Positions 41,979 to 57,404 of a stretch of 64,000 nucleotides of DNA are shown here, one piece after another; the stretch's first letter is position 1; the number at the start of each line of letters is the position of its first letter. Origin of the DNA: a phage; sequence record PZ295659.1; one strand, given 5' to 3'. A program made the translations under genes and the position numbers. The notes beneath the pieces were generated by a model, which was given only the letters and a program-made list of their open reading frames with translations, did no database searches and was not told the DNA's origin.

Positions 41979-42560
41979 TTATAACAACCCTGTCAAATCA
42001 TTCCAATGCTTCCGGCATAATGACACATATCTATCGGTGTCACCAATTTCAATTTGACTGCCATCTGTAATTGGAAGTCCGTCTTCCGTGACTCTAGCTA
42101 CCATTGTGGCCTTTTTACCACAATGACAGACACCTTTAAGTTCAACAAGCTTATCGGCAATAGCCATTAATGCTTGAGAACCTTCAAATAGATTACCTTT
42201 AAAATCTGTTCGTAGTCCATATGCCATTACCGGCACATTGTATACGTCAACAATACGACTAAGTTGATACACCTTTTCAGTAGTTAAGAATTGAGCTTCA
42301 TCAACAAATACACAATGAATATCCTTTTGTGCTGCAGCCCATTTATAGAATTCAAAGATATCCATGTCTTTTGTAATTATATTGGCGTCCTGACGAATAC
42401 CAATACGAGAGACTATTTCACCTTTTGAATCGCGAGTATCAATAGCCGGTTTAAGAACTAATACACTCATGCCACGTTCTTTATAGTTATGAGCGGCAGT
42501 AAGTAATGAAGCAGACTTACCAGCGTTCATAGCGGCATATGTAAAAATTAAACTAGCCAT
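41979..42560 (-). CDS. tk: thymidine kinase
   Basis: 193 aa; P-loop YAAMNAGKS, zinc-ligand Cys pairs CHCGKK...SLCRKH; colinear with T4 Tk. Confidence 0.95.
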   Translation of the reverse strand: MASLIFTYAAMNAGKSASLLTAAHNYKERGMSVLVLKPAIDTRDSKGEIVSRIGIRQDANIITKDMDIFEFYKWAAAQKDIHCVFVDEAQFLTTEKVYQLSRIVDVYNVPVMAYGLRTDFKGNLFEGSQALMAIADKLVELKGVCHCGKKATMVARVTEDGLPITDGSQIEIGDTDRYVSLCRKHWNDLTGLL

Positions 42561-47094: not shown

Positions 47095-47424
47095 TTATAC
47101 TCTAGGCTTTTGAGCTTGTTTGGTATTGGATTCCCATGCGGCTTTGGTAATTTTGTTAGCGGCATAACCAAAGGCACTAGATAGAACACCTTTAGAGTTG
47201 AATACATCCAATCCAATAAGTACACCGGCTGTGTTAAATTTAGGAGCAAAGTACGCATTAGTTTTAGAAAGAGCTTTTTTCAATTCAGGGTCTTGAACCA
47301 AGCCATCAAAAACGCCTTTACTATTTACTTTATATGTTACTTTGGGATTTTTAGCTTCTTCGATAGCAGCTTTCTGTTCCGCAGATAATGTAACTTCAGT
47401 GATAAACTCTTGATATGTTTTCAT
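47095..47424 (-). CDS. internal-protein-like (Ip) with capsid targeting sequence
   Basis: N-terminus MKTYQEFITE matches T4 internal protein CTS (MKTYQEFIAEA) with LxE-type gp21 cleavage context. Confidence 0.65.
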   Translation of the reverse strand: MKTYQEFITEVTLSAEQKAAIEEAKNPKVTYKVNSKGVFDGLVQDPELKKALSKTNAYFAPKFNTAGVLIGLDVFNSKGVLSSAFGYAANKITKAAWESNTKQAQKPRV

Positions 47425-47465: not shown

Positions 47466-48044
47466 TTAATTACCACGGGCTGCATTAGCAACGGCATAAG
47501 CGTACTGAACATTAGCGTCTTTAAACGTACCTTTAGAGGTATCTATTTCTGCCTTAAAGCCGCCTTTAGCCATAACATCGGCAAATTCTTTACGGAAAGC
47601 CATTGCATCAAGACCTTTCCATGATGATTTGTGCTTGGCGAATTCAAGACCAGCGTAGTTGACAGCCTTAGCTAATTTATTATCAATAACCCATTTACCG
47701 GCTTTAGGCACAAACTTCGGGCCTTTTTGTTTAGAGAACAGTTTTAAATTCCAGCGACGAAGATCACTGTCGGCTTTAACAAAAGCTGCGTCTAAGTTAC
47801 TAGCAACAACATCTTCAATATGAGCAAATTTAAGTCCGTCAACTTCAATATTTAGATCGTTACGCCAGCGAAGTCCTTCCCAAGCGAAGGCTTTAAAATC
47901 AGAAGCTTTTGTGGCTAGATATCGTTCAATTGGAGCAGTTTTAGGGTCAAAGCCGTTTCCACCACGATAAGTCCACTCGTCCTTATTAATGCCTTGAGCT
48001 TTTCCTGCAAAGGCCTCGGCGATAAATTCTTTATACGTTTTCAT
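47466..48044 (-). CDS. internal-protein-like (Ip) with capsid targeting sequence
   Basis: N-terminus MKTYKEFIAEA; 192 aa. Confidence 0.65.
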   Translation of the reverse strand: MKTYKEFIAEAFAGKAQGINKDEWTYRGGNGFDPKTAPIERYLATKASDFKAFAWEGLRWRNDLNIEVDGLKFAHIEDVVASNLDAAFVKADSDLRRWNLKLFSKQKGPKFVPKAGKWVIDNKLAKAVNYAGLEFAKHKSSWKGLDAMAFRKEFADVMAKGGFKAEIDTSKGTFKDANVQYAYAVANAARGN

Positions 48045-48169: not shown

Positions 48170-48367
48170 CTACTTTAGGCTTGCTACAACATAAGCAATT
48201 TCACTACGTTTTGCATAGGTGTTGATTTCTTTACCATCGCCACCTAAGAAAAAATACCCATTACGTTTTAATGAGCCAAAGTCTTCCGCATCACCAATGA
48301 AAGCTTTAACTTTAAATTTAGGACCTTTGGCATCTGCTTCAGCGATAAATTCTTGATACATTTTCAT
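48170..48367 (-). CDS. internal-protein-like (Ip) with capsid targeting sequence
   Basis: N-terminus MKMYQEFIAEA; 65 aa. Confidence 0.55.
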   Translation of the reverse strand: MKMYQEFIAEADAKGPKFKVKAFIGDAEDFGSLKRNGYFFLGGDGKEINTYAKRSEIAYVVASLK

Positions 48368-48845: not shown

Positions 48846-49127
48846 CTATTTTTCTGAAGCGCCCGAAATATATTTTTCAAGACGTTGTTTCATCAGCGAA
48901 CCGTTCTTGGCGATTTCTTCCGGTTTATCACACATACGCAACAAGGCTTCAAGCTTAACGATATCACTGGTACGTTCAAATTTGCGAGTATCTATCTTAC
49001 TAGCAAGTTCAGAAATACGTGCTAATAGACTTTCAGCTTCAACCAAAGCTGCACCTAGCTTAGTTGCAAATGTGTCAGTAGCTTCGTTAAGAATAGATTC
49101 TGATAAAAATTCACTATATGTTTTCAT
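48846..49127 (-). CDS. internal-protein-like (Ip) with capsid targeting sequence
   Basis: [11 protein letters not shown]-terminus; ATG overlaps stop of lysozyme gene. Confidence 0.6.
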
Positions 49128-49612
49128 ATATACGCTTTCCAAGTTCCTGTTTTAAATGTTGAGATTACGCGTTTCGCACGATTAGGTGTCTGACGATACC
49201 ATTTAGATTGGGCTAGATTTACTGCCGCTTCGTCCCAACGTTTCTGTTGAAGCATACGAAGAGAATTAGTAAAACCAGCGACGCCTGCTACACCCATTTG
49301 GAAGACCATATTAACCAATGCACATCGACGAACTGCATCTAAAGAATCATATACCGGTTTAAGTTTAGCATTACCCAAGATTCCGCGAACGGCTTTATCA
49401 ACGTCTTCATTAAATAGCTTTTCGGCCTCATCAAGGGTAATTGTACCGTTGCATTTACGTCCGATCATTCTGTCAAGTTCAGCTTTAGCTACGGCTAAAG
49501 ACGGGTTCTTTGTTACTAAATGACCTATGCCAATCGTCCAAAAGCCTTCAGTGTCTTTGTATAAAGTCAGTCTAAGACCTTCGTCATTACGAAGCATTTC
49601 AAATATATTCAT
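49124..49612 (-). CDS. e: lysozyme (endolysin) E
   Basis: [32 protein letters not shown]... catalytic E11/D20/T26 context as T4 lysozyme. Confidence 0.95.
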
Positions 49613-49646
49613 AATACCTCCCACGTTTATAGGAGGTATTTATTAC

Positions 49647-50120
49647 TTATAGGATGGTAGTGAGCACCTTATATAATGATTTGCCCATTACATATTCCCA
49701 TTGAGAAGGTTTAATTAAAGCGAATGCATCAAATTCAGGAATCTGTCGTCCGTCTGGGAATGTATGATAGGAATTACAAACACTGTTTCTGAATTGCTCG
49801 TGCTCTACAGGGATGGTATATAGGAACAGATGAATATTCTTATTGTCTGAGTAATGATGTTCACCTAGGTCTTTCAGGAAGGCAGGGTCATATTGTGTAA
49901 ACCCAGTTTCTTCTTCGCATTCACGAATAGCGGCTTCGATAGGAGATTCACCGGGCTCGACACGACCTTTAGGAATATCCCACCGATGAGCTAAAGAACC
50001 TTTAGGACGAGAACCAGTTACACGCCCCATGAATAATTCTTTATCTTCGGTAAGGAAAATAATACCAGCTGATAGTTCTTTCACTTTATTTTTCTTACTC
50101 ATCATCTCAAATTCCTGCAT
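49647..50120 (-). CDS. nudE: Nudix hydrolase NudE
   Basis: Nudix box GRVEPGESPIEAAIRECEEETGF. Confidence 0.8.
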   Translation of the reverse strand: MQEFEMMSKKNKVKELSAGIIFLTEDKELFMGRVTGSRPKGSLAHRWDIPKGRVEPGESPIEAAIRECEEETGFTQYDPAFLKDLGEHHYSDNKNIHLFLYTIPVEHEQFRNSVCNSYHTFPDGRQIPEFDAFALIKPSQWEYVMGKSLYKVLTTIL

Positions 50121-50593
50121 TCGGTAATAAAACGTTCAACTTCATTATTCTTGGCCTTTATCTTGTCTTTATGTTCTTGTAAACTACTTTTAATAAGATT
50201 AATAATGATGGCGGCGGTACCGCCGCCAATGATGCCACCAACAACACTTATGATAATAGATACTAATAAGATAGCAATAATATCAACAAAACCGAAAGAA
50301 CTCACCTTAGTACTGAAAAACCATATAGATGGTACAAATATAATCCATCCTGTTATCCATTGGCACTTATTGAAAAACTTTTCAAGCTCAGCTTGAGTTG
50401 TTCGTATTACTTCATCAATAGGTTGATATCCATTAATGTATCTGTTCACGATAATACCTGCTGGCTGGTCGATTTTAAATTCTTGGCAAATACGTTTCAC
50501 TAAGTAGGATGGACAGGATGTCCAATCTACTGAATAGTATGAAATACCTTCATTGCCGTCGTCTATATTAGACCAATATGTTTTGTTAATCAT
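50102..50593 (-). CDS. membrane protein with C-terminal FITECR motif
   Basis: 163 aa, two TM helices, C-terminus ...ERFITECRNLR. Confidence 0.5.
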   Translation of the reverse strand: MINKTYWSNIDDGNEGISYYSVDWTSCPSYLVKRICQEFKIDQPAGIIVNRYINGYQPIDEVIRTTQAELEKFFNKCQWITGWIIFVPSIWFFSTKVSSFGFVDIIAILLVSIIISVVGGIIGGGTAAIIINLIKSSLQEHKDKIKAKNNEVERFITECRNLR

Positions 50594-51279
50594 TACCAGC
50601 CTTCCATAGGGAATTCCAGATAAACTTGAGCATTGACACGAATTTCATTGGTAATCTTTTTAACTCGGTCTGTATTACGAGATACACGTCCGAACCAACG
50701 CCATCCATTACTAATTGCACGAGAACCAGTGTGCCATGTTTGCCAATCAAACTGAAGAAGAGTACGATCTGGAGCTTCCCATTTCTCTAGTTCACCTTTT
50801 TCAATTTTTTCGAGGACTTCTTTGTGCCACTGACGATAGATAAGTTCGCCATCAGGAATCTGACTGAACTCTGCAGTTCCTGTTGCAAAATGAGTAGGAC
50901 ACACATCAGCGTTAACAAGACCAAGAATATGTTCAGACAAATAGCGAGGATTGTCATAATCAGGTTGTCCTGCAGTAATAAAGTGCTGACCAACTGGAAT
51001 ATCTGGGCGTGGTACGTCATCATGGTGATATCCAGGAATAGCAGGATACCAACCAGGCATCAGCATGTGGACTCGTGAATCAAATACTACATCCGAGTCT
51101 TTCCAATTATCAGGAAGATTTTGGATAAAGCTACGAGTAATTGGGCCGCCATTATCAAAAGCAAAATTCAAATCACAGTTAAAGAACATAGGCTCGTTTT
51201 TAATCTGGTCGTTTTTAATCGCATGAGCAAAACCACCTACTGCACGAGCTTGGCTATTAAACACTTTAGAACTATTCAT
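50593..51279 (-). CDS. hypothetical protein
   Basis: 228-aa ORF. Confidence 0.5.
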   Translation of the reverse strand: MNSSKVFNSQARAVGGFAHAIKNDQIKNEPMFFNCDLNFAFDNGGPITRSFIQNLPDNWKDSDVVFDSRVHMLMPGWYPAIPGYHHDDVPRPDIPVGQHFITAGQPDYDNPRYLSEHILGLVNADVCPTHFATGTAEFSQIPDGELIYRQWHKEVLEKIEKGELEKWEAPDRTLLQFDWQTWHTGSRAISNGWRWFGRVSRNTDRVKKITNEIRVNAQVYLEFPMEGW

Positions 51280-51280
51280 A

Positions 51281-51586
51281 TTATTTTCCTCGACATTCTT
51301 TAATGAAATTTTCTAGATTGGTAGATTCAATAGCTTTTTTACGAGCTTCTGCGTGTTCTTCTTCAGACAATTTACATTTATAATTGACCCAGACATTATG
51401 GTCGAAACTAGTCGTGGCATATAATAACAATGCTCCGACGAATAATAAAAACGGTGATAAGAATACAAAACCGGGAACACCATCCATATCGTAAGCCTTT
51501 TGTAATACTGCAACAGAAAGGGCTGCGTAAAAAGGTGATGCAAATATTGTTAAAAGACCAATTCGGTTGGTTTCGCCTAATTTCAT
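51281..51586 (-). CDS. membrane protein with C-terminal FIKECR motif
   Basis: 101 aa, two TM helices, C-terminus ...ENFIKECRGK whose codons contain the SD of the next gene. Confidence 0.5.
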   Translation of the reverse strand: MKLGETNRIGLLTIFASPFYAALSVAVLQKAYDMDGVPGFVFLSPFLLFVGALLLYATTSFDHNVWVNYKCKLSEEEHAEARKKAIESTNLENFIKECRGK

Positions 51587-51605
51587 AATATTCTCCTCAT
51601 GTTTT

Positions 51606-51644
51606 AATAGGACTACTATAACATAATCCTATAATTGTGTAAAC
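51606..51644 (-). promoter_or_regulatory. early promoter stem-loop (PeSL)
   Basis: ataggactactataacataatcctat with gtaaac at 51639-51644. Confidence 0.5.
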
Positions 51645-51656
51645 AGTTTTGTGAAG

Positions 51657-52613
51657 TTATTTGAAAGGTTTCACCATATGAAAATTTTCTTTAAACCGTT
51701 TGATGTAATCATCATGTCCTAAGCTTTGGTACATACTTACTACTTTGCTGTAGTTTTCCCAGGCGTATTCACGGAACCAACCGGAGGTGATGCTTGTACA
51801 GACTTTTTCCAATGCCATCATGAAACTGGCTTCAGGATTAATTTTAAAGTCATTAGGAATCTGAGAACGTTCTAATGCTAGTACACATGATTCTTCATAT
51901 ACACCGGCCAATTTGACCATTTCTGGTAAAGATTCGAACTTCTCGCGTGAGGTCATGACTTCAGAACCGTCTTTCATATAAAATGTATATGCTGGACGGT
52001 CTGTTAGTGCAATGGCTTCATGAATAGTATCATGGTCATATGTATAGATGTCATCTTTAAAGAACGCACTTTTAGAAGTGTCAAGAACTGGGTGAGCATA
52101 GTTCAAGGTTTCTTTCTGGCGTTTCAGCATAATTTCAGTAAGTTCATCGTTCAGTGTAACACCTTTACCACGAAGATACTGAATATGGTTCATAGTCTTT
52201 AAAAAGAATGGATTATTTTTCTTGAAACGATGAGACATCTTAATTGCAAGACATATCTCAGGAGTTGCCCAGTAAAACCCGTTCAAACGGTCTTTAGTCA
52301 AATTTTTCTTGGCGTATTTTAAAAGGTCATAAGAAGACGTGAAATCTTCAGGAGTGAGTTCACCGACTAATTCACGGACATTAGTGATTGCCGGAACAAT
52401 ATATGCTTCAAAATGAGTTTCGCGTCCATTATGGAAGCATTTGAAAACTTGGACATCAGGGTTATCTTGATGAACATATACACCCATCATTTGATTTTTG
52501 AACACATTCCAAGAACATTGGTCCGCAATAAAGTCCCAATCACTATTTTTGATAGCACTAGAATCAATAAGACCGTGATAGTGAAGTGCACGAGAACCAA
52601 TAACTAACATCAT
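51657..52613 (-). CDS. nucleotidyltransferase-fold-like protein
   Basis: 318 aa; N-terminal MMLVIGSRALHYHGLIDSSAIKNSDWDF resembles the GS...DxD start of 38319..39308. Confidence 0.45.
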   Translation of the reverse strand: MMLVIGSRALHYHGLIDSSAIKNSDWDFIADQCSWNVFKNQMMGVYVHQDNPDVQVFKCFHNGRETHFEAYIVPAITNVRELVGELTPEDFTSSYDLLKYAKKNLTKDRLNGFYWATPEICLAIKMSHRFKKNNPFFLKTMNHIQYLRGKGVTLNDELTEIMLKRQKETLNYAHPVLDTSKSAFFKDDIYTYDHDTIHEAIALTDRPAYTFYMKDGSEVMTSREKFESLPEMVKLAGVYEESCVLALERSQIPNDFKINPEASFMMALEKVCTSITSGWFREYAWENYSKVVSMYQSLGHDDYIKRFKENFHMVKPFK

Positions 52614-52641
52614 AATATTTTCCTCGGATTAATTCATTAAC

Positions 52642-52893
52642 TTAAATTTCACGACATGCGGTATCATATTCATCCCAGAGGTCATCGTGTGAAGCCTCTA
52701 CCAATGGAACGATTGTACCATTTATATCTTCATTATAAGGACAAATTGTACAATGTGCATCTTCGAATCGGATGCCTTTGTGTTCAGATTTTTTATAACG
52801 CATATCGAATATCTTTGCAAACTTTTCACGAGTAATGGTTTTAGCAACCACTTCGGTTCTAATACTTTCGTAATAAATCATTGTGGGCTCCAT
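52642..52893 (-). CDS. hypothetical protein
   Basis: 83-aa ORF. Confidence 0.45.
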   Translation of the reverse strand: MEPTMIYYESIRTEVVAKTITREKFAKIFDMRYKKSEHKGIRFEDAHCTICPYNEDINGTIVPLVEASHDDLWDEYDTACREI

Positions 52894-52898
52894 TTAAT

Positions 52899-52939
52899 TT
52901 GATAGGACTACTATAACATAGCCCTATCTTGTTGTAAAC
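52899..52939 (-). promoter_or_regulatory. early promoter stem-loop (PeSL)
   Basis: gataggactactataacatagccctatc with gtaaac at 52934-52939. Confidence 0.5.
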
Positions 52940-52944
52940 TGTTT

Positions 52945-53142
52945 TTAGCAAGAATAACTAGATGATACCCAGCCTTGAACAGTAATACTATTATTTGATA
53001 CCGAGATTGCGTTCTGGAGATTCAGACCTGCGTTATCTTCAATCCATAATGTAACTTCTTCGCGTTCTTCTGTTGCAATTTGGAACAGGTTTTCCAGGGC
53101 AGCTACTGCCGTACGTACAGCACAATCTAATTCACGAGACAT
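52945..53142 (-). CDS. small protein, C-terminal WxSSxxC family (member 1)
   Basis: 65 aa ending QGWVSSSYSC. Confidence 0.45.
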   Translation of the reverse strand: MSRELDCAVRTAVAALENLFQIATEEREEVTLWIEDNAGLNLQNAISVSNNSITVQGWVSSSYSC

Positions 53143-53151
53143 ATGATTTCC

Positions 53152-53424
53152 TTAACAAGTGTGAGAAGATGCAATCCAACCACCGGTTTCGAGGCTTAGG
53201 TTGTAGTCGTATTGGTAAACGTCAGCCCATTCAGCATAGCCGTTTTTTGTACAACGTTCAAGGTCGGCTTTAAGCTGTCCGGGTGAATGATAGGTTCCAC
53301 CCATACCATAAGCTGGATACAAGTCGAATGTTGTGTTTTGTTTATCAGCAATTTCTTTGGCGGCCTCAATAGCTGCATAGATTTTTGCTACAGCTTCAGC
53401 CAGTTCGGTTTGTTCTTTAGACAT
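53152..53424 (-). CDS. small protein, C-terminal WxSSxxC family (member 2)
   Basis: 90 aa ending GGWIASSHTC. Confidence 0.45.
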   Translation of the reverse strand: MSKEQTELAEAVAKIYAAIEAAKEIADKQNTTFDLYPAYGMGGTYHSPGQLKADLERCTKNGYAEWADVYQYDYNLSLETGGWIASSHTC

Positions 53425-53433
53425 AGTGATTCC

Positions 53434-53739
53434 TTAGCACAACGCAGAAGACGAAACCCAAGCACCTTCAGTAATAACGTAACCATTACCTTCACGCTTA
53501 ACATCGCCACCATTATTTTCAATTTCATTTTTCATCCACTGGGATACGATTTCACCCTTAGGATAATAAGTACGACCGCTACCATAATCACCTACAGAAA
53601 ATGATACGGCATATTGGTCTGCGATCTTTGTTGCTTCTTCTTCGATACGTTCAGCTTGATTCAGAAGTTTATAAATTGCATCTGAAGCGGATTTGGCATC
53701 ATTAAACTCTGGTACTTTAATTTCAATAATCTTACTCAT
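53434..53739 (-). CDS. small protein, C-terminal WxSSxxC family (member 3)
   Basis: 101 aa ending GAWVSSSALC; internal similarity to member 2. Confidence 0.45.
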   Translation of the reverse strand: MSKIIEIKVPEFNDAKSASDAIYKLLNQAERIEEEATKIADQYAVSFSVGDYGSGRTYYPKGEIVSQWMKNEIENNGGDVKREGNGYVITEGAWVSSSALC

Positions 53740-54095
53740 TTTCTACATTCCTTAATAAAGTTTTTGATTGTTTCATTTTCACGTCTAGATAAGAGTTCAT
53801 TATAACTAATCATTTGAGAAGCGTAAACCTTTTTATTTTTCTTGTTATGGTTTATAAAATCGTAGTAAAAATAGACTACAGTACAAAATGATGCGATGGA
53901 TGCAAAGGCTTGGGTATACCGTAAGTCCTGCCATTGGTCTGTGAATCCACCAGTGTTCCCTATAAATCCTAACACAACGCCGTCAATAAGAAATCCAACT
54001 AATCCAAAGGCAAATCCCATGCCAATACTCATAATAAAAATTAGAATGTTCTCACCAAGAGAAGGCCATACGGTTAAGAGTTCAGGCTTTTGCAT
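53736..54095 (-). CDS. membrane protein with C-terminal FIKECR motif
   Basis: 119 aa, TM helices, ends NFIKECRK. Confidence 0.5.
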   Translation of the reverse strand: MQKPELLTVWPSLGENILIFIMSIGMGFAFGLVGFLIDGVVLGFIGNTGGFTDQWQDLRYTQAFASIASFCTVVYFYYDFINHNKKNKKVYASQMISYNELLSRRENETIKNFIKECRK

Positions 54096-54469
54096 CTTAT
54101 CTCCTTAACGAATTCCATGGCTTCTTCATATTCATACTTTTTAACAGCTTCATCATACTGAGCTTGGGCTTTTGCGCACTGAACTTTCCATTCTCTTAAT
54201 CGGGCTCTGTGATGACGGCCTTGGTACCAATATCCCACCCAGTTAATAGGCATTAATAAAAACGGTACAATAAGTGGTGCGACGAACATTAATGAAAATG
54301 CTGCATCAGACGATATAACTTCACTAGAATCTAAAACAGCTCCTATAATCATAAAGATTAAAAATGCTAAAGCTAAAATAGGGCCAAATAGTACTTCGTT
54401 TGGGATTAATTTACGTTTGTATTCATACGCCCAGGGCTTAATTGGCATGTATAGGGTTGGCTTTGACAT
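54074..54469 (-). CDS. membrane protein with C-terminal FVKEIR motif
   Basis: Track ORF trimmed to ATG 54469 (MSKPTLYMP...); ends ...EFVKEIRCKSLNS. Confidence 0.5.
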   Translation of the reverse strand: MSKPTLYMPIKPWAYEYKRKLIPNEVLFGPILALAFLIFMIIGAVLDSSEVISSDAAFSLMFVAPLIVPFLLMPINWVGYWYQGRHHRARLREWKVQCAKAQAQYDEAVKKYEYEEAMEFVKEIRCKSLNS

Positions 54470-55034
54470 ATTCTCTACATTCCATAATAAATTGCTCAAG
54501 GATTAAATTGTTAGTGAAATTAGGACTAACAACCATGGTTTCATAAAGCGCATCAATAGCACTTAAAGCATCAACTCTTTTAAGCAAAGGCTTGCCTTCA
54601 TACATAGTTTCAGAATCGACGATTAACGTAAAGTAATATTTTTTATTATTGACCAGAACTTCTGTATCAATATAAAACATGTTAGATCTTAAAAGCTTGT
54701 CTCTAAAACCATAATAATCTTCAGAGCGTTCGCTGATATATTCCCATTCAGTGTTTAAACAACAAACAGACCACGTAGGAGCAACGAAATCAGTGAATCT
54801 AATATCATGGTCTGCAACTAGTTTAGCAATAGCTCCGATATCATGAATCATAATACCTGGGGCTAATAAAGATTTTCGGTTATTTGCATATTCAGTTGTC
54901 TCATAAGAAGACGACCAGTACCATTTACGTCCAGTTGCAACATATCGTAATGAATCAACTAAAGACGTAGGTGGATTTACCTTATTTCGGAACTCTTCGA
55001 ACATTGAGTCAATATCATTATTTTGGTTTCGCAT
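54438..55034 (-). CDS. hypothetical protein with C-terminal FIMECR motif
   Basis: Track ORF starts at TTG; ATG 55034 with AAGGA SD preferred. Confidence 0.5.
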   Translation of the reverse strand: MRNQNNDIDSMFEEFRNKVNPPTSLVDSLRYVATGRKWYWSSSYETTEYANNRKSLLAPGIMIHDIGAIAKLVADHDIRFTDFVAPTWSVCCLNTEWEYISERSEDYYGFRDKLLRSNMFYIDTEVLVNNKKYYFTLIVDSETMYEGKPLLKRVDALSAIDALYETMVVSPNFTNNLILEQFIMECREYVKANPIHAN

Positions 55035-55083: not shown

Positions 55084-55677
55084 TTATTTCAAAGAGTTAA
55101 TATATTCTTGTACATCAGCAGAAGTGGTTTCGACACCAGCTGGAGTGCCATTGAACGTTTCAACACGAGTCAGAGTGTCTTCGATATCAACCTTAGTTAG
55201 TGCAGCGATTTCAATTACATCATCAGCCGTAGAGATACCAAGGGCATTGGCTGCTCGAGTTTCACGAATGTATTCGAGTTTGATTGCCAGATTCTGACGA
55301 GCATCGTCAAGTTCAACCACCTTACGAGCAATTTCAATTCGCATAGCGGCATACCCGTCAGCTTTTGTATTAAGTTGTTCGGCAGTTCGACGATACAGAA
55401 GACCAAGCTTAGCATGCATGGTAACATCTTGTCCTTCAGCCAGGAGCTTACGAATTTCACGTTCCTTAGAAGCGGCTTGCTTATTCTTTTCAATAACAAG
55501 TTCGCGAATACGTTTTTCTTCATTAATAGATTTAACAGAAGCCGTTTTTAGTTCTTTGATTTGGGTAATCAACTTATCTGCAGCTGCGTTATACTGTTCT
55601 TCAACAGTCAGATTTTTAGCCATAGCAGTACCCAGTTTAGTGCGGATGAATTCAACAAGTTTCTTCAGTGTGTTCAT
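55084..55677 (-). CDS. coiled-coil protein (possible PspA/IM30-like)
   Basis: ~197 aa, almost entirely helical heptad-like sequence; ATG 55677 with AAGG SD. Confidence 0.45.
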
Positions 55678-55711
55678 ATTATTACCTTTCAATTGGTGGT
55701 TTATTATCCAA

Positions 55712-56840: not shown

Positions 56841-57404
56841 TTATTTACCTAGTTTAGTTATTATAGCTTCGGCAGCAGCTTTTAGCTTAGATGCAGTGTT
56901 AATACGATTTTTAATTTCAGTATACGCATCGCCAAGAACATCAAGGCTATCAGAATAAACACTTACACTATTGCGTTCGCTATTTGAAATAGAACCTTTA
57001 GTTTTACGATCAAAATCAGTGTACACGTCTTGAAGATCACGGGCTGCCTTCTTTGCATCATCCAATGCATCAAGAGCTTTATTCAAAGCATTGACATATT
57101 TTTTAGTGTCAAACATATTCTTAGAAATTTTAACAGGTGCACGTTCAGGAGTAGCTAAGGCGGATTTAGGAACCTGCGTGCCAGATGCCAGTTTCTTAGA
57201 AATTTTGAAAAACGCTTTATTGAAACTATTTTCTTGACTCATCGTAAAAGAACTAGTATCGATGTTATACATTTCAATAGCTTTAGCTTTCCACTTAAGA
57301 AAATCGCCACGGTCTTTTGGATCCAAGTGGAAGAATACTTTAGTAAGATCTGCTTCAGATGGTAATTTTGCTGCTTCTGTTAAAAATTCGGCATAGGTTT
57401 TCAT
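56841..57404 (-). CDS. internal-protein-like (Ip) with capsid targeting sequence
   Basis: N-terminus MKTYAEFLTEA; 187 aa. Confidence 0.6.
   Translation of the reverse strand: MKTYAEFLTEAAKLPSEADLTKVFFHLDPKDRGDFLKWKAKAIEMYNIDTSSFTMSQENSFNKAFFKISKKLASGTQVPKSALATPERAPVKISKNMFDTKKYVNALNKALDALDDAKKAARDLQDVYTDFDRKTKGSISNSERNSVSVYSDSLDVLGDAYTEIKNRINTASKLKAAAEAIITKLGK

Follow-up and report, generated by a model that had tools for sequence, protein, structure and literature searches.

What makes five genes of one phage locus end in the same few codons: a DNA element at their junctions, or a peptide at the ends of their proteins? We addressed this question in a 64,000-nt stretch of phage DNA (sequence record PZ295659.1; here, the window), in which five proteins encoded on the minus strand between positions 50,102 and 55,034 share a C-terminal tail of the FIKECR type. 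A first-pass annotation had interpreted the tail codons as a conserved DNA block that supplies the ribosome-binding site of the next gene, a junction cassette reused to enforce translational coupling. Our analysis leads us to a different reading, which we consider likely: the FIKECR tail is a C-terminal peptide module kept for a protein-level role, on which the Shine-Dalgarno (SD) sequence is overlaid, and not a mobile or reused DNA element.

The tail and the proteins that carry it

A six-frame search of the window with the pattern F[IVL]xE[CI]R gave exactly five matches in real genes, each on the minus strand at a distance of 1-11 residues from the stop codon; a sixth match lies in a non-coding frame (position 2188). 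The five tails in the last 20 residues compare with 0.0035 expected from the amino-acid composition of the window over 117 gene calls, which were crude (first ATG, greedy non-overlap). A position-specific scoring matrix (PSSM) built from non-Mosigvirus tails only ranked the five window tails 1-5 of 18,018 positions (20.6-27.0 bits), with the next match at 11.7 bits. That runner-up, YVSLCRK (41979-42560), is the C-terminus of thymidine kinase, an unrelated Tk motif. A relaxed form of the motif was found at four C-termini of the locus, compared with 0.15 expected in the window, and elsewhere in proteins at chance level. The maximum 19-residue Kyte-Doolittle mean is 2.3-2.9 in four of the tail proteins and 1.56 in the e.5 product. 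The first-pass annotation was right that the five genes share an F[IV]xE[CI]R-type C-terminus, present at each gene end that it named, and hydropathy bears out its count of four membrane proteins among the five, e.5 being the exception.

The window is that of a Mosigvirus, a T4-like coliphage: over 49.6-55.1 kb, Escherichia phage S143_2 and other Mosigviruses (JS98/HX01-like T4-type phages) match it at 97.6% identity. All genes of this region lie on the minus strand. PHROG profiles and synteny with T4 give the transcription order e.6, e.5, e.4, e.3, seven genes absent from T4 (including that of the protein P2), e.2, nudE, e (lysozyme), an internal-protein gene and denV, in which the order e.6-e.5-e.4-e.3-...-e.2-nudE-e is that of T4. 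The homologues of e.2, e.3, e.4 and e.5 belong to the respective orthologous groups by full-length hidden Markov model matches to PHROG 2203, 2330, 2604 and 2607 (E 3e-53, 9e-50, 1e-63 and 7e-95) and by position between e.6 and nudE; tblastn identity between the window and homologues in T4-type phages is 37-58%. The genes concerned, in order of transcription, are:

55084-55692, minus strand: e.6 homologue (PHROG profiles, T4 synteny).
54438..55034, minus strand: e.5 homologue (phrog_2607), 198 amino acids, soluble, ending in LILEQFIMECREYVKANPIHAN; motif codons 54474-54491; the final 32 nt overlap the e.4 start.
54074..54469, minus strand: e.4 homologue (phrog_2604), 131 amino acids, two hydrophobic segments by hydropathy, ending in EAMEFVKEIRCKSLNS; motif codons 54095-54112.
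53736..54095, minus strand: e.3 homologue (phrog_2330), 119 amino acids, membrane protein, ending in ETIKNFIKECRK; motif codons 53742-53759; ATGA overlap, next start at 53739.
51281..51586, minus strand: P2 (phrog_9798), Mosigvirus-specific membrane protein of 101 amino acids, ending in NLENFIKECRGK; motif codons 51290-51307; next start at 51279.
50102..50593, minus strand: e.2 homologue (phrog_2203), 163 amino acids, ending in EVERFITECRNLR; motif codons 50114-50131; the stop overlaps the nudE start (50105 or 50102).

The e.2 homologue joins an N-terminal soluble domain to membrane segments. Homologues of P2 occur in 150 phage records, every one at least 80% identical and named Escherichia, Shigella or Mosigvirus. 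A Pfam search with the five tail proteins, the e.6 product and two soluble tail carriers returned zero significant families, a PDB sequence search with the e.2 product gave no match, and nothing relevant was found in the literature on e.3, e.4, e.5 or e.6.

Besides Mosigvirus and Tequatrovirus, we surveyed the e.6-nudE locus of Dhakavirus, Kanagawavirus, Moonvirus, Marfavirus, Klebsiella phage Phi_KR1 and Winklervirus. The survey drew on annotated GenBank phages, a search for related loci in viral contigs having given 6, and the family labels of some distant genes are by position and size. It yielded 36 tails over 8 phage genera, with a 37th in Aeromonas phage avDM5, where the gene after e.6 carries a clear C-terminal tail. 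The consensus is hydrophobic-x-x-[FW]-[IV]-K-x-C-R-K-stop. Counting from the aromatic residue as position 0, the 36 tails have F or W at 0 (36/36), I, V or L at +1 (36/36), K at +2 (20/36), E at +3 (16/36; otherwise G, Q, Y, N, S, L or H), C at +4 (28/36; otherwise M, I, V or S) and R at +5 (33/36). A hydrophobic residue occupies position -3 in 30/36, the residue after the motif is usually basic, and the stop codon lies 0-13 residues beyond the motif.

In almost all phages examined, the gene directly downstream of e.6 has the tail at its end. In Serratia phage WSPA this gene has a degenerate tail, and in the Pseudotevenvirus EC-F2 it has a looser match only (FIHSCK), 27 residues from the C-terminus. 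The carriers represent at least 10 PHROG families (2203, 9798, 2330, 2604, 2607/13418, 32323, 9796, 22510, 10830 and 10543), which include small soluble proteins and all lie within the e.6-nudE locus; a tail-bearing genome usually has four to six copies, on membrane and soluble proteins alike. In T4 itself, e.3 ends in EFVIDCRKIK, e.4 in KFVKESRCKSQS and e.5 in EKFVKECREYVKAITIPSK (KFVKECREYVK...); over 126 of the 169 kb of T4, read in all frames, the tail is present only in e.3, e.4, e.5 and a remnant of e.2. Other Tequatroviruses have an intact e.2 of 162 amino acids ending in NNFITECRKLK.

A word-indexed protein search with the e.5 and e.3 products found close relatives only (14 and 3 clusters), and an exhaustive HMMER search with a profile of e.5 against 1.84 billion representatives gave 5 matches, all of Mosigvirus or Tequatrovirus type or fragments, the distant carriers not being among them. 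We did not find the tail described in the searchable literature, an absence that is itself weak evidence. By this distribution, the tail is locus-specific, C-terminus-specific and old. The same terminal peptide on proteins without other similarity, conserved across taxa, is what characterizes a short linear motif or terminal sorting peptide, and the tail fits this description.

The reference T4 e.2 (102 amino acids) is a broken gene; what is left of the remainder lies out of frame in the annotated gap between e.2 and nudE and includes a 36-amino-acid open reading frame (ORF) ending in NNFITECRKLK (67472-67582, minus strand; L001 5492-5652) that overlaps the nudE start.

Nucleotide and peptide conservation at the junctions

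If the tail codons were a conserved DNA block, the five window tails should be more alike in nucleotides than their peptides demand. With the peptides fixed and synonymous codons resampled from the window's own usage, the expected mean pairwise nucleotide identity is 0.712 ± 0.032; the observed value is 0.717 (P=0.41). Identical codons make up 0.51 of the total among the five tails, compared with 0.54 expected. The similarity is therefore confined to amino acids, the outcome that had been named beforehand as refuting a DNA block. The synonymous-site test proposed in the same place also found no extra conservation: in codon pairs for the same amino acid, Mosigvirus and Tequatrovirus orthologues differ synonymously about as often in the tail as in the rest of the gene (fractions: e.3, 0.172 and 0.176; e.4, 0.170 and 0.214; e.5, 0.162 and 0.220). 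Within the tails, codons vary synonymously at F (TTT/TTC), I (ATT/ATC/ATA), C (TGT/TGC) and R (AGA/AGG/CGA/CGT/CGG). Of the block itself, TTTATTAARGAATGTMGA, part was recovered: three window tails lie within 3 mismatches of it (0, 1 and 1), and the e.2 and e.4 tails do not match.

The Arg codons of the window tails are AGA, AGG or CGA and not CGT, which accounts for 56% of Arg codons genome-wide. CGT is likewise avoided, 12/12, in non-tail window genes within 20 nt upstream of another gene's start; the purine-rich skew in Arg codons is generic to window junctions and not specific to the tail. At the variable tail positions, likeness is 0.16 between different families within a genome, 0.16 between different families across genera and 0.20 between orthologous tails. 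There is no homogenization within a genome and no sign of gene conversion or cassette swapping. Judged from these sequence comparisons, conservation acts at the peptide level, and what they show is purifying selection on a C-terminal amphipathic helix (described below) common to unrelated proteins of one locus.

The tails nevertheless bear on the translation of the next gene, as the first-pass annotation had proposed. The SD or SD-like sites at the five junctions, with the free energies of their anti-SD duplexes, are:

54480..54487, minus strand: weak SD-like site before the e.4 start, TTATGGAA, in the I-M-E codons of the e.5 tail; -3.3 kcal/mol.
54100..54107, minus strand: SD of e.3, TAAGGAGA, in the V-K-E-I codons of the e.4 tail; -9.0 kcal/mol.
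53748..53755, minus strand: SD of the gene after e.3, TTAAGGAA, in the I-K-E codons of the e.3 tail; -6.1 kcal/mol.
51287..51294, minus strand: SD of a gene for a 228-amino-acid protein, GTCGAGGA, in the C-R-G codons of P2, mostly past the motif; -5.9 kcal/mol.
50112..50119, minus strand: SD of nudE, TGCAGGAA, in the C-R-N codons of e.2, at and past the motif end; -4.3 kcal/mol.

An AAGGA-type SD inside the tail is clear at the junctions of e.3 with the next gene and of e.4 with e.3, and weak at that of e.5 with e.4, where T4 has AAGGAA; at the P2 and e.2 junctions the SD (GAGGA and AGGA) is made by codons after the motif. In its DNA and SD part, the first-pass annotation is right in about half of the cases. 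The ATGA overlap that it described as frequent is found at e.3 and arguably at e.2 (ATGATGA); P2 has TAA-T-ATG, e.4 and e.3 overlap by 22 nt, with the e.3 ATG (54095-54093) lying within the R-C codons of the e.4 tail, and e.5 and e.4 overlap by 32 nt. Altogether the five junctions comprise overlaps of 32, 22, 4 and 1-4 nt and one 1-nt gap, with the SD within the last 3-12 codons of the upstream ORF, and all five have the combination of short overlap or gap and SD in the upstream ORF that is one mark of translationally coupled pairs.

For each of the 36 tails we recorded how far the next start lies from the motif and looked for GGA, GAG or AGG in codons +2/+3 (motif codons 3-4). Such a triplet is present in 18/19 tails with the next ATG within 5 nt and in 2/17 with the ATG further away. 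The residue pairs that spell an SD are K-E (AAGGAA), K-G (AAAGGA), E-E (GAGGAA), M-E (ATGGAG) and R-S (AGGAGC). That the downstream SD is often written in tail codons thus stands, and the true core of the earlier idea is that the two free positions of the peptide absorb the RNA requirement of the neighboring gene. Tails without an adjacent start keep the motif: in Dhakavirus phrog_9796 and Phi_KR1 phrog_22510, an intergenic stretch of 61 and 37 nt, respectively, comes after the tail.

The junction RNAs of the window have no structure beyond that of shuffled sequences (z -0.34 to +1.50), and none occludes the downstream start. Unstructured junctions argue against enforced coupling and are still compatible with termination-reinitiation. 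Tight spacing is usual in the window and not a property of the tail: about half of all its junctions overlap or are spaced by at most 15 nt (58/118, by the crude gene calls). The arrangement resembles the ATGA-type junctions common in T4, with the downstream SD in the last upstream codons, ATGA or short overlaps and a purine bias; in contrast, such junctions explain only positions +2/+3 and the Arg codon of the tail, and not F, I/V, C and R or the tails without a start.

Two further RNA-level candidates were discarded. The out-of-frame ATG that arises in GAA-TGY (the E-C codons) is not conserved across tails as a hidden start. A RegB site (GGAG) occurs, within the window tails, only in that of e.4, where the e.3 SD TAAGGAGA has a synonymous GAG/GAA polymorphism among Mosigviruses.

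Origin and possible role of the tail

The tail is predicted to be the end of an amphipathic α-helix. An AlphaFold2 model of the e.5 product (13-sequence alignment; predicted local distance difference test [pLDDT] 66, predicted template modeling score [pTM] 0.68) places LILEQFIMECREYVKA in a C-terminal helix, residues 177-192; a Foldseek search of the PDB with this model gave nothing below E=0.09 (TM<0.2), leaving the fold uninformative. A weak model of the e.3 product (pLDDT 61, pTM 0.28) has one continuous helix from the second transmembrane segment (TM2) to the C-terminus, residues 52-118, with the tail as its best-scored part. Hydrophobic residues occupy -3, 0, +1 and +4, making up an i, i+3, i+4, i+7 stripe, and the helical hydrophobic moment of the tail is 0.53 versus 0.35 ± 0.17 in shuffled sequences. 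The tail would lie in the cytoplasm, because a basic stretch follows TM2 (positive-inside rule), a placement consistent with its occurrence on soluble proteins without a signal peptide. C-terminal amphipathic membrane-targeting helices are known from MinD and FtsA. These too are short, basic and at the extreme C-terminus, with the same stripe; they differ in having no sequence relationship to the tail, the hydrophobicity of which is modest (mean H -0.20).

According to the reading that we favor, the tail would mark early proteins of the e.6-nudE interval that are otherwise unlike each other: E.2, E.3, E.4, E.5, P2 and small soluble ones. Because the genes of the locus abut or overlap, the translation-initiation region of the next gene would land on the tail, and the free positions +2 and +3, together with the choice of Arg codon, would spell the SD (K-E as AAG GAA, K-G as AAA GGA, E-E as GAG GAA, Arg as AGR). 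This would be ordinary dual coding at a tight gene junction. The helix could act on the cytoplasmic side as a common docking, oligomerization or targeting element that binds one partner or lets the carriers bind each other, a role supported by the four to six copies per genome on membrane and soluble proteins. Replacement of the Cys by M, I or V suggests a hydrophobic contact and not chemistry. E.6, encoded immediately upstream, is by position a candidate partner. A more specific version, which we put forward tentatively, is that the tail serves as a sorting or docking signal, a C-terminal counterpart of the N-terminal capsid-targeting sequence of T4, and recruits four to six early proteins per phage (inner-membrane E.2, E.3, E.4 and P2; soluble E.5 and proteins of ~95-110 amino acids) to one partner or into a membrane-associated hetero-oligomer. 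Candidates for the partner would be a host protein or E.6, which is highly conserved and always adjacent.

That the peptide is instead a by-product of a DNA or RNA junction cassette, TTTATTAAGGAATGTAGA, reused to provide an SD and enforce coupling, is improbable. Three window tails do lie within 1 mismatch of the DNA consensus, the SD falls in motif codons at 18/19 tightly abutting junctions, the tail Arg codons depart from the usual CGT, and the e.2-type tails of CIP9, EI and CHI14 swap E for G yet keep AAGGA (AAA GGA). A cassette would leave unexplained that nucleotide identity is what the peptide alone predicts, that F, I/V, C and R are kept though they give nothing to the SD, and that +3, which forms the SD, is the position that varies across genera. 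Moreover, the window's P2 and e.2 junctions, like 15/17 junctions with a more distant start, have the SD outside the motif, the Arg skew recurs in non-tail genes, two tails have no adjacent start codon, copies are not homogenized within a genome, and the unstructured RNA contains nothing to force coupling. This claim, the more exotic one, is not supported. It is of the type of the PeSLs in T4-type hyperplastic regions, which are intergenic elements made of a sigma-70 promoter and a stem-loop and conserved as DNA (Arbiol et al., 2010; PMC2839356). Both PeSLs and the tails recur at gene boundaries of a hyperplastic region in T4-like genomes; unlike PeSLs, the tails are coding, unstructured and conserved only as peptide. 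Assignment of the tails to the PeSLs was rejected on both counts: they lie inside coding sequence with fold energies not below those of shuffles, and they are not DNA-conserved copies exchanged by recombination. A nascent-peptide signal, in which the ribosome pauses near the stop and thereby promotes re-initiation at the overlapping downstream start, is more doubtful still. All five window junctions have the next ATG at -1 to +11 nt from the motif end, 19/36 tails have it within 5 nt, and the distance to the carrier's own stop varies more (0-13 codons). Against such a signal, the next start can be as far as 61 nt away, two tails are followed by intergenic DNA, the EC-F2 motif is 27 residues from the stop, and the tail resembles no known arrest motif.

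Could the carriers simply be highly diverged tandem paralogues or partial duplicates, with the tail as the slowest-evolving remnant of a structural helix and no shared partner? As the whole explanation we regard this as unlikely, though it has more in its favor than a cassette. After removal of the tails, direct comparison of the window proteins gave no pairwise score above that of shuffled controls. In profile comparisons with hhalign, e.3 and e.4 remain full-length homologues when the tails are left off (92.8%, E 4e-7, 103 columns); the TM2-linker-tail part of e.3 aligns with P2 (84%, 55 columns) and with the C-terminal half of e.2 (87%, 76 columns), in both cases only with the tail included. 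The carrier genes are adjacent, and each family holds its own tail variant (e.4 never has C at +4; e.5 has CRE or CRD). Pure descent fits less well with e.5 and the soluble families: the e.5-position proteins and phrog_32323, 9796 and 22510 align with the other carriers over no more than 10-32 tail columns, and the e.5-position proteins have diverged between genera beyond any HMMER profile link and still keep the tail. That four particular residues are so strongly kept on unrelated folds requires a common selective cause, so that descent accounts for the origin of the tail and not for its maintenance. Sequence comparison points to a mixed origin, probably by tandem or partial duplication among the membrane proteins, with the terminal helix alone acquired or retained on the soluble ones.

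The T4 capsid-targeting sequence (CTS, MKTYQEFIAE) is the nearest conceptual precedent for the tail as a putative shared sorting signal: it too is a terminal peptide of ~10 residues with an amphipathic F-I core, on non-homologous proteins of a plastic locus. It differs in being N-terminal; the tail is C-terminal, adds C-R-K and occurs on early membrane and soluble proteins, and the two profiles do not cross-match. In T4, I-x-E is the cleavage context of the gp21 protease. That the tail is a C-terminal copy of the CTS and gp21 site (xEF[IL]xE) is nonetheless hardly credible. By eye MKTYQEFIAE and xxNFIKE(CR) both read hydrophobic-x-x-F-I-x-E, and five CTS-bearing genes lie in the same window; set against this, the front half of the tail PSSM places no CTS N-terminus among its top 16 matches, E at +3 is not conserved across genera, and the carriers are early membrane proteins and not head components. 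Nor is the tail a CTS proper (N-terminal MKTYxEF[IL]xE with gp21 cleavage), since it is C-terminal and the PSSM fails on the five CTS N-termini of the window.

Several points weigh against a peptide module maintained purely for a protein-level role. The e.4 and e.5 tails diverge slightly less at synonymous sites than their genes as a whole, so that a weak RNA-level constraint (the SD) coexists with that on the peptide. The Fisher test on the 18/19 and 2/17 junctions (p=5e-7) overstates significance because the 36 tails are not phylogenetically independent. Both AlphaFold2 models are of low to moderate confidence (pLDDT 66 and 61). By profile comparison e.3 and e.4 are true paralogues, and e.2 and P2 may share a TM2-linker-tail module with e.3; part of the tail sharing would thus be simple descent. 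The docking or targeting role is one that we infer.

We regard the tail as a case of a terminal peptide motif, common to about ten otherwise unrelated families of one locus, rather than a new mechanism. T4 e.2-e.6 are among the conserved early genes without an assigned function in the best-studied phage, and the tail provides a concrete, testable handle on them; if it is a sorting signal, e.2-e.6 would work together as one system. The locus is also a neat natural illustration of how the same codons can serve a peptide motif and the ribosome-binding site of the next gene.

Other features of the locus

Five genes on the minus strand (47095-47424, 47466-48044, 48170-48367, 48846-49142 and 56841-57404) begin MK(T/M)Y(Q/K/S/A)EF(I/L)xE, the CTS, giving at least five CTS-bearing proteins in the window. 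Two early-promoter-like repeats (GTTTACA...TATAGTAGTCCTAT; ~51605-51650 and ~52895-52940, minus strand) occupy the only sizeable intergenic gaps of the locus, separate from the tails, and resemble PeSL or early-promoter elements of T4-type hyperplastic regions.

Conservation of the e.6 homologue is very wide (1,102 phage records). It is annotated as 'shock protein A' in Klebsiella phage EI; the window protein (55084-55692) has no PspA Pfam match and no PDB sequence match. The 228-amino-acid protein adjoining e.2 (phrog_1843; 50593-51279, minus strand) is unusually widespread: many T4-like genera have it at 70-99% identity, and proteins of mycobacteriophages and of Gordonia, Bacillus and Cronobacter phages resemble it at ~30%, which suggests a horizontally mobile gene.

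Phage mogra and phages of the Dhaka, Moon, KR1 and CHI14 types have a gene for a 78-amino-acid protein (MSIAIYIK...) between e.2 and nudE that is absent from the window (50095-50117, minus strand; L002 3496-3732). Its endpoints are two near-identical start contexts, GAGATGAGTA and GAGATGATGAGTA, which suggests loss by a microhomology deletion at translation starts. An inverted repeat (atacctcc...ggaggtat, 49610-49650) covers the SD of the lysozyme gene e, and an equivalent hairpin lies upstream of e in Klebsiella phage Phi_KR1. The hairpin fits the situation in T4, where the SD of e is known to be sequestered in early transcripts.

A second common C-terminus is found in three tandem phrog_899 paralogues on the minus strand (52945-53142, 53152-53424 and 53434-53739), which end in GWVSSSYSC, GGWIASSHTC and GAWVSSSALC. 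Dhakavirus and Kanagawavirus have 5-6 phrog_899 copies with the pattern W-x-[SP]-S-S-x(0-3)-C-stop (L010 5300-6542; L011 2966-4045 and 4392-4589), and several copies are followed by TAA GGAAAnnnn ATG.

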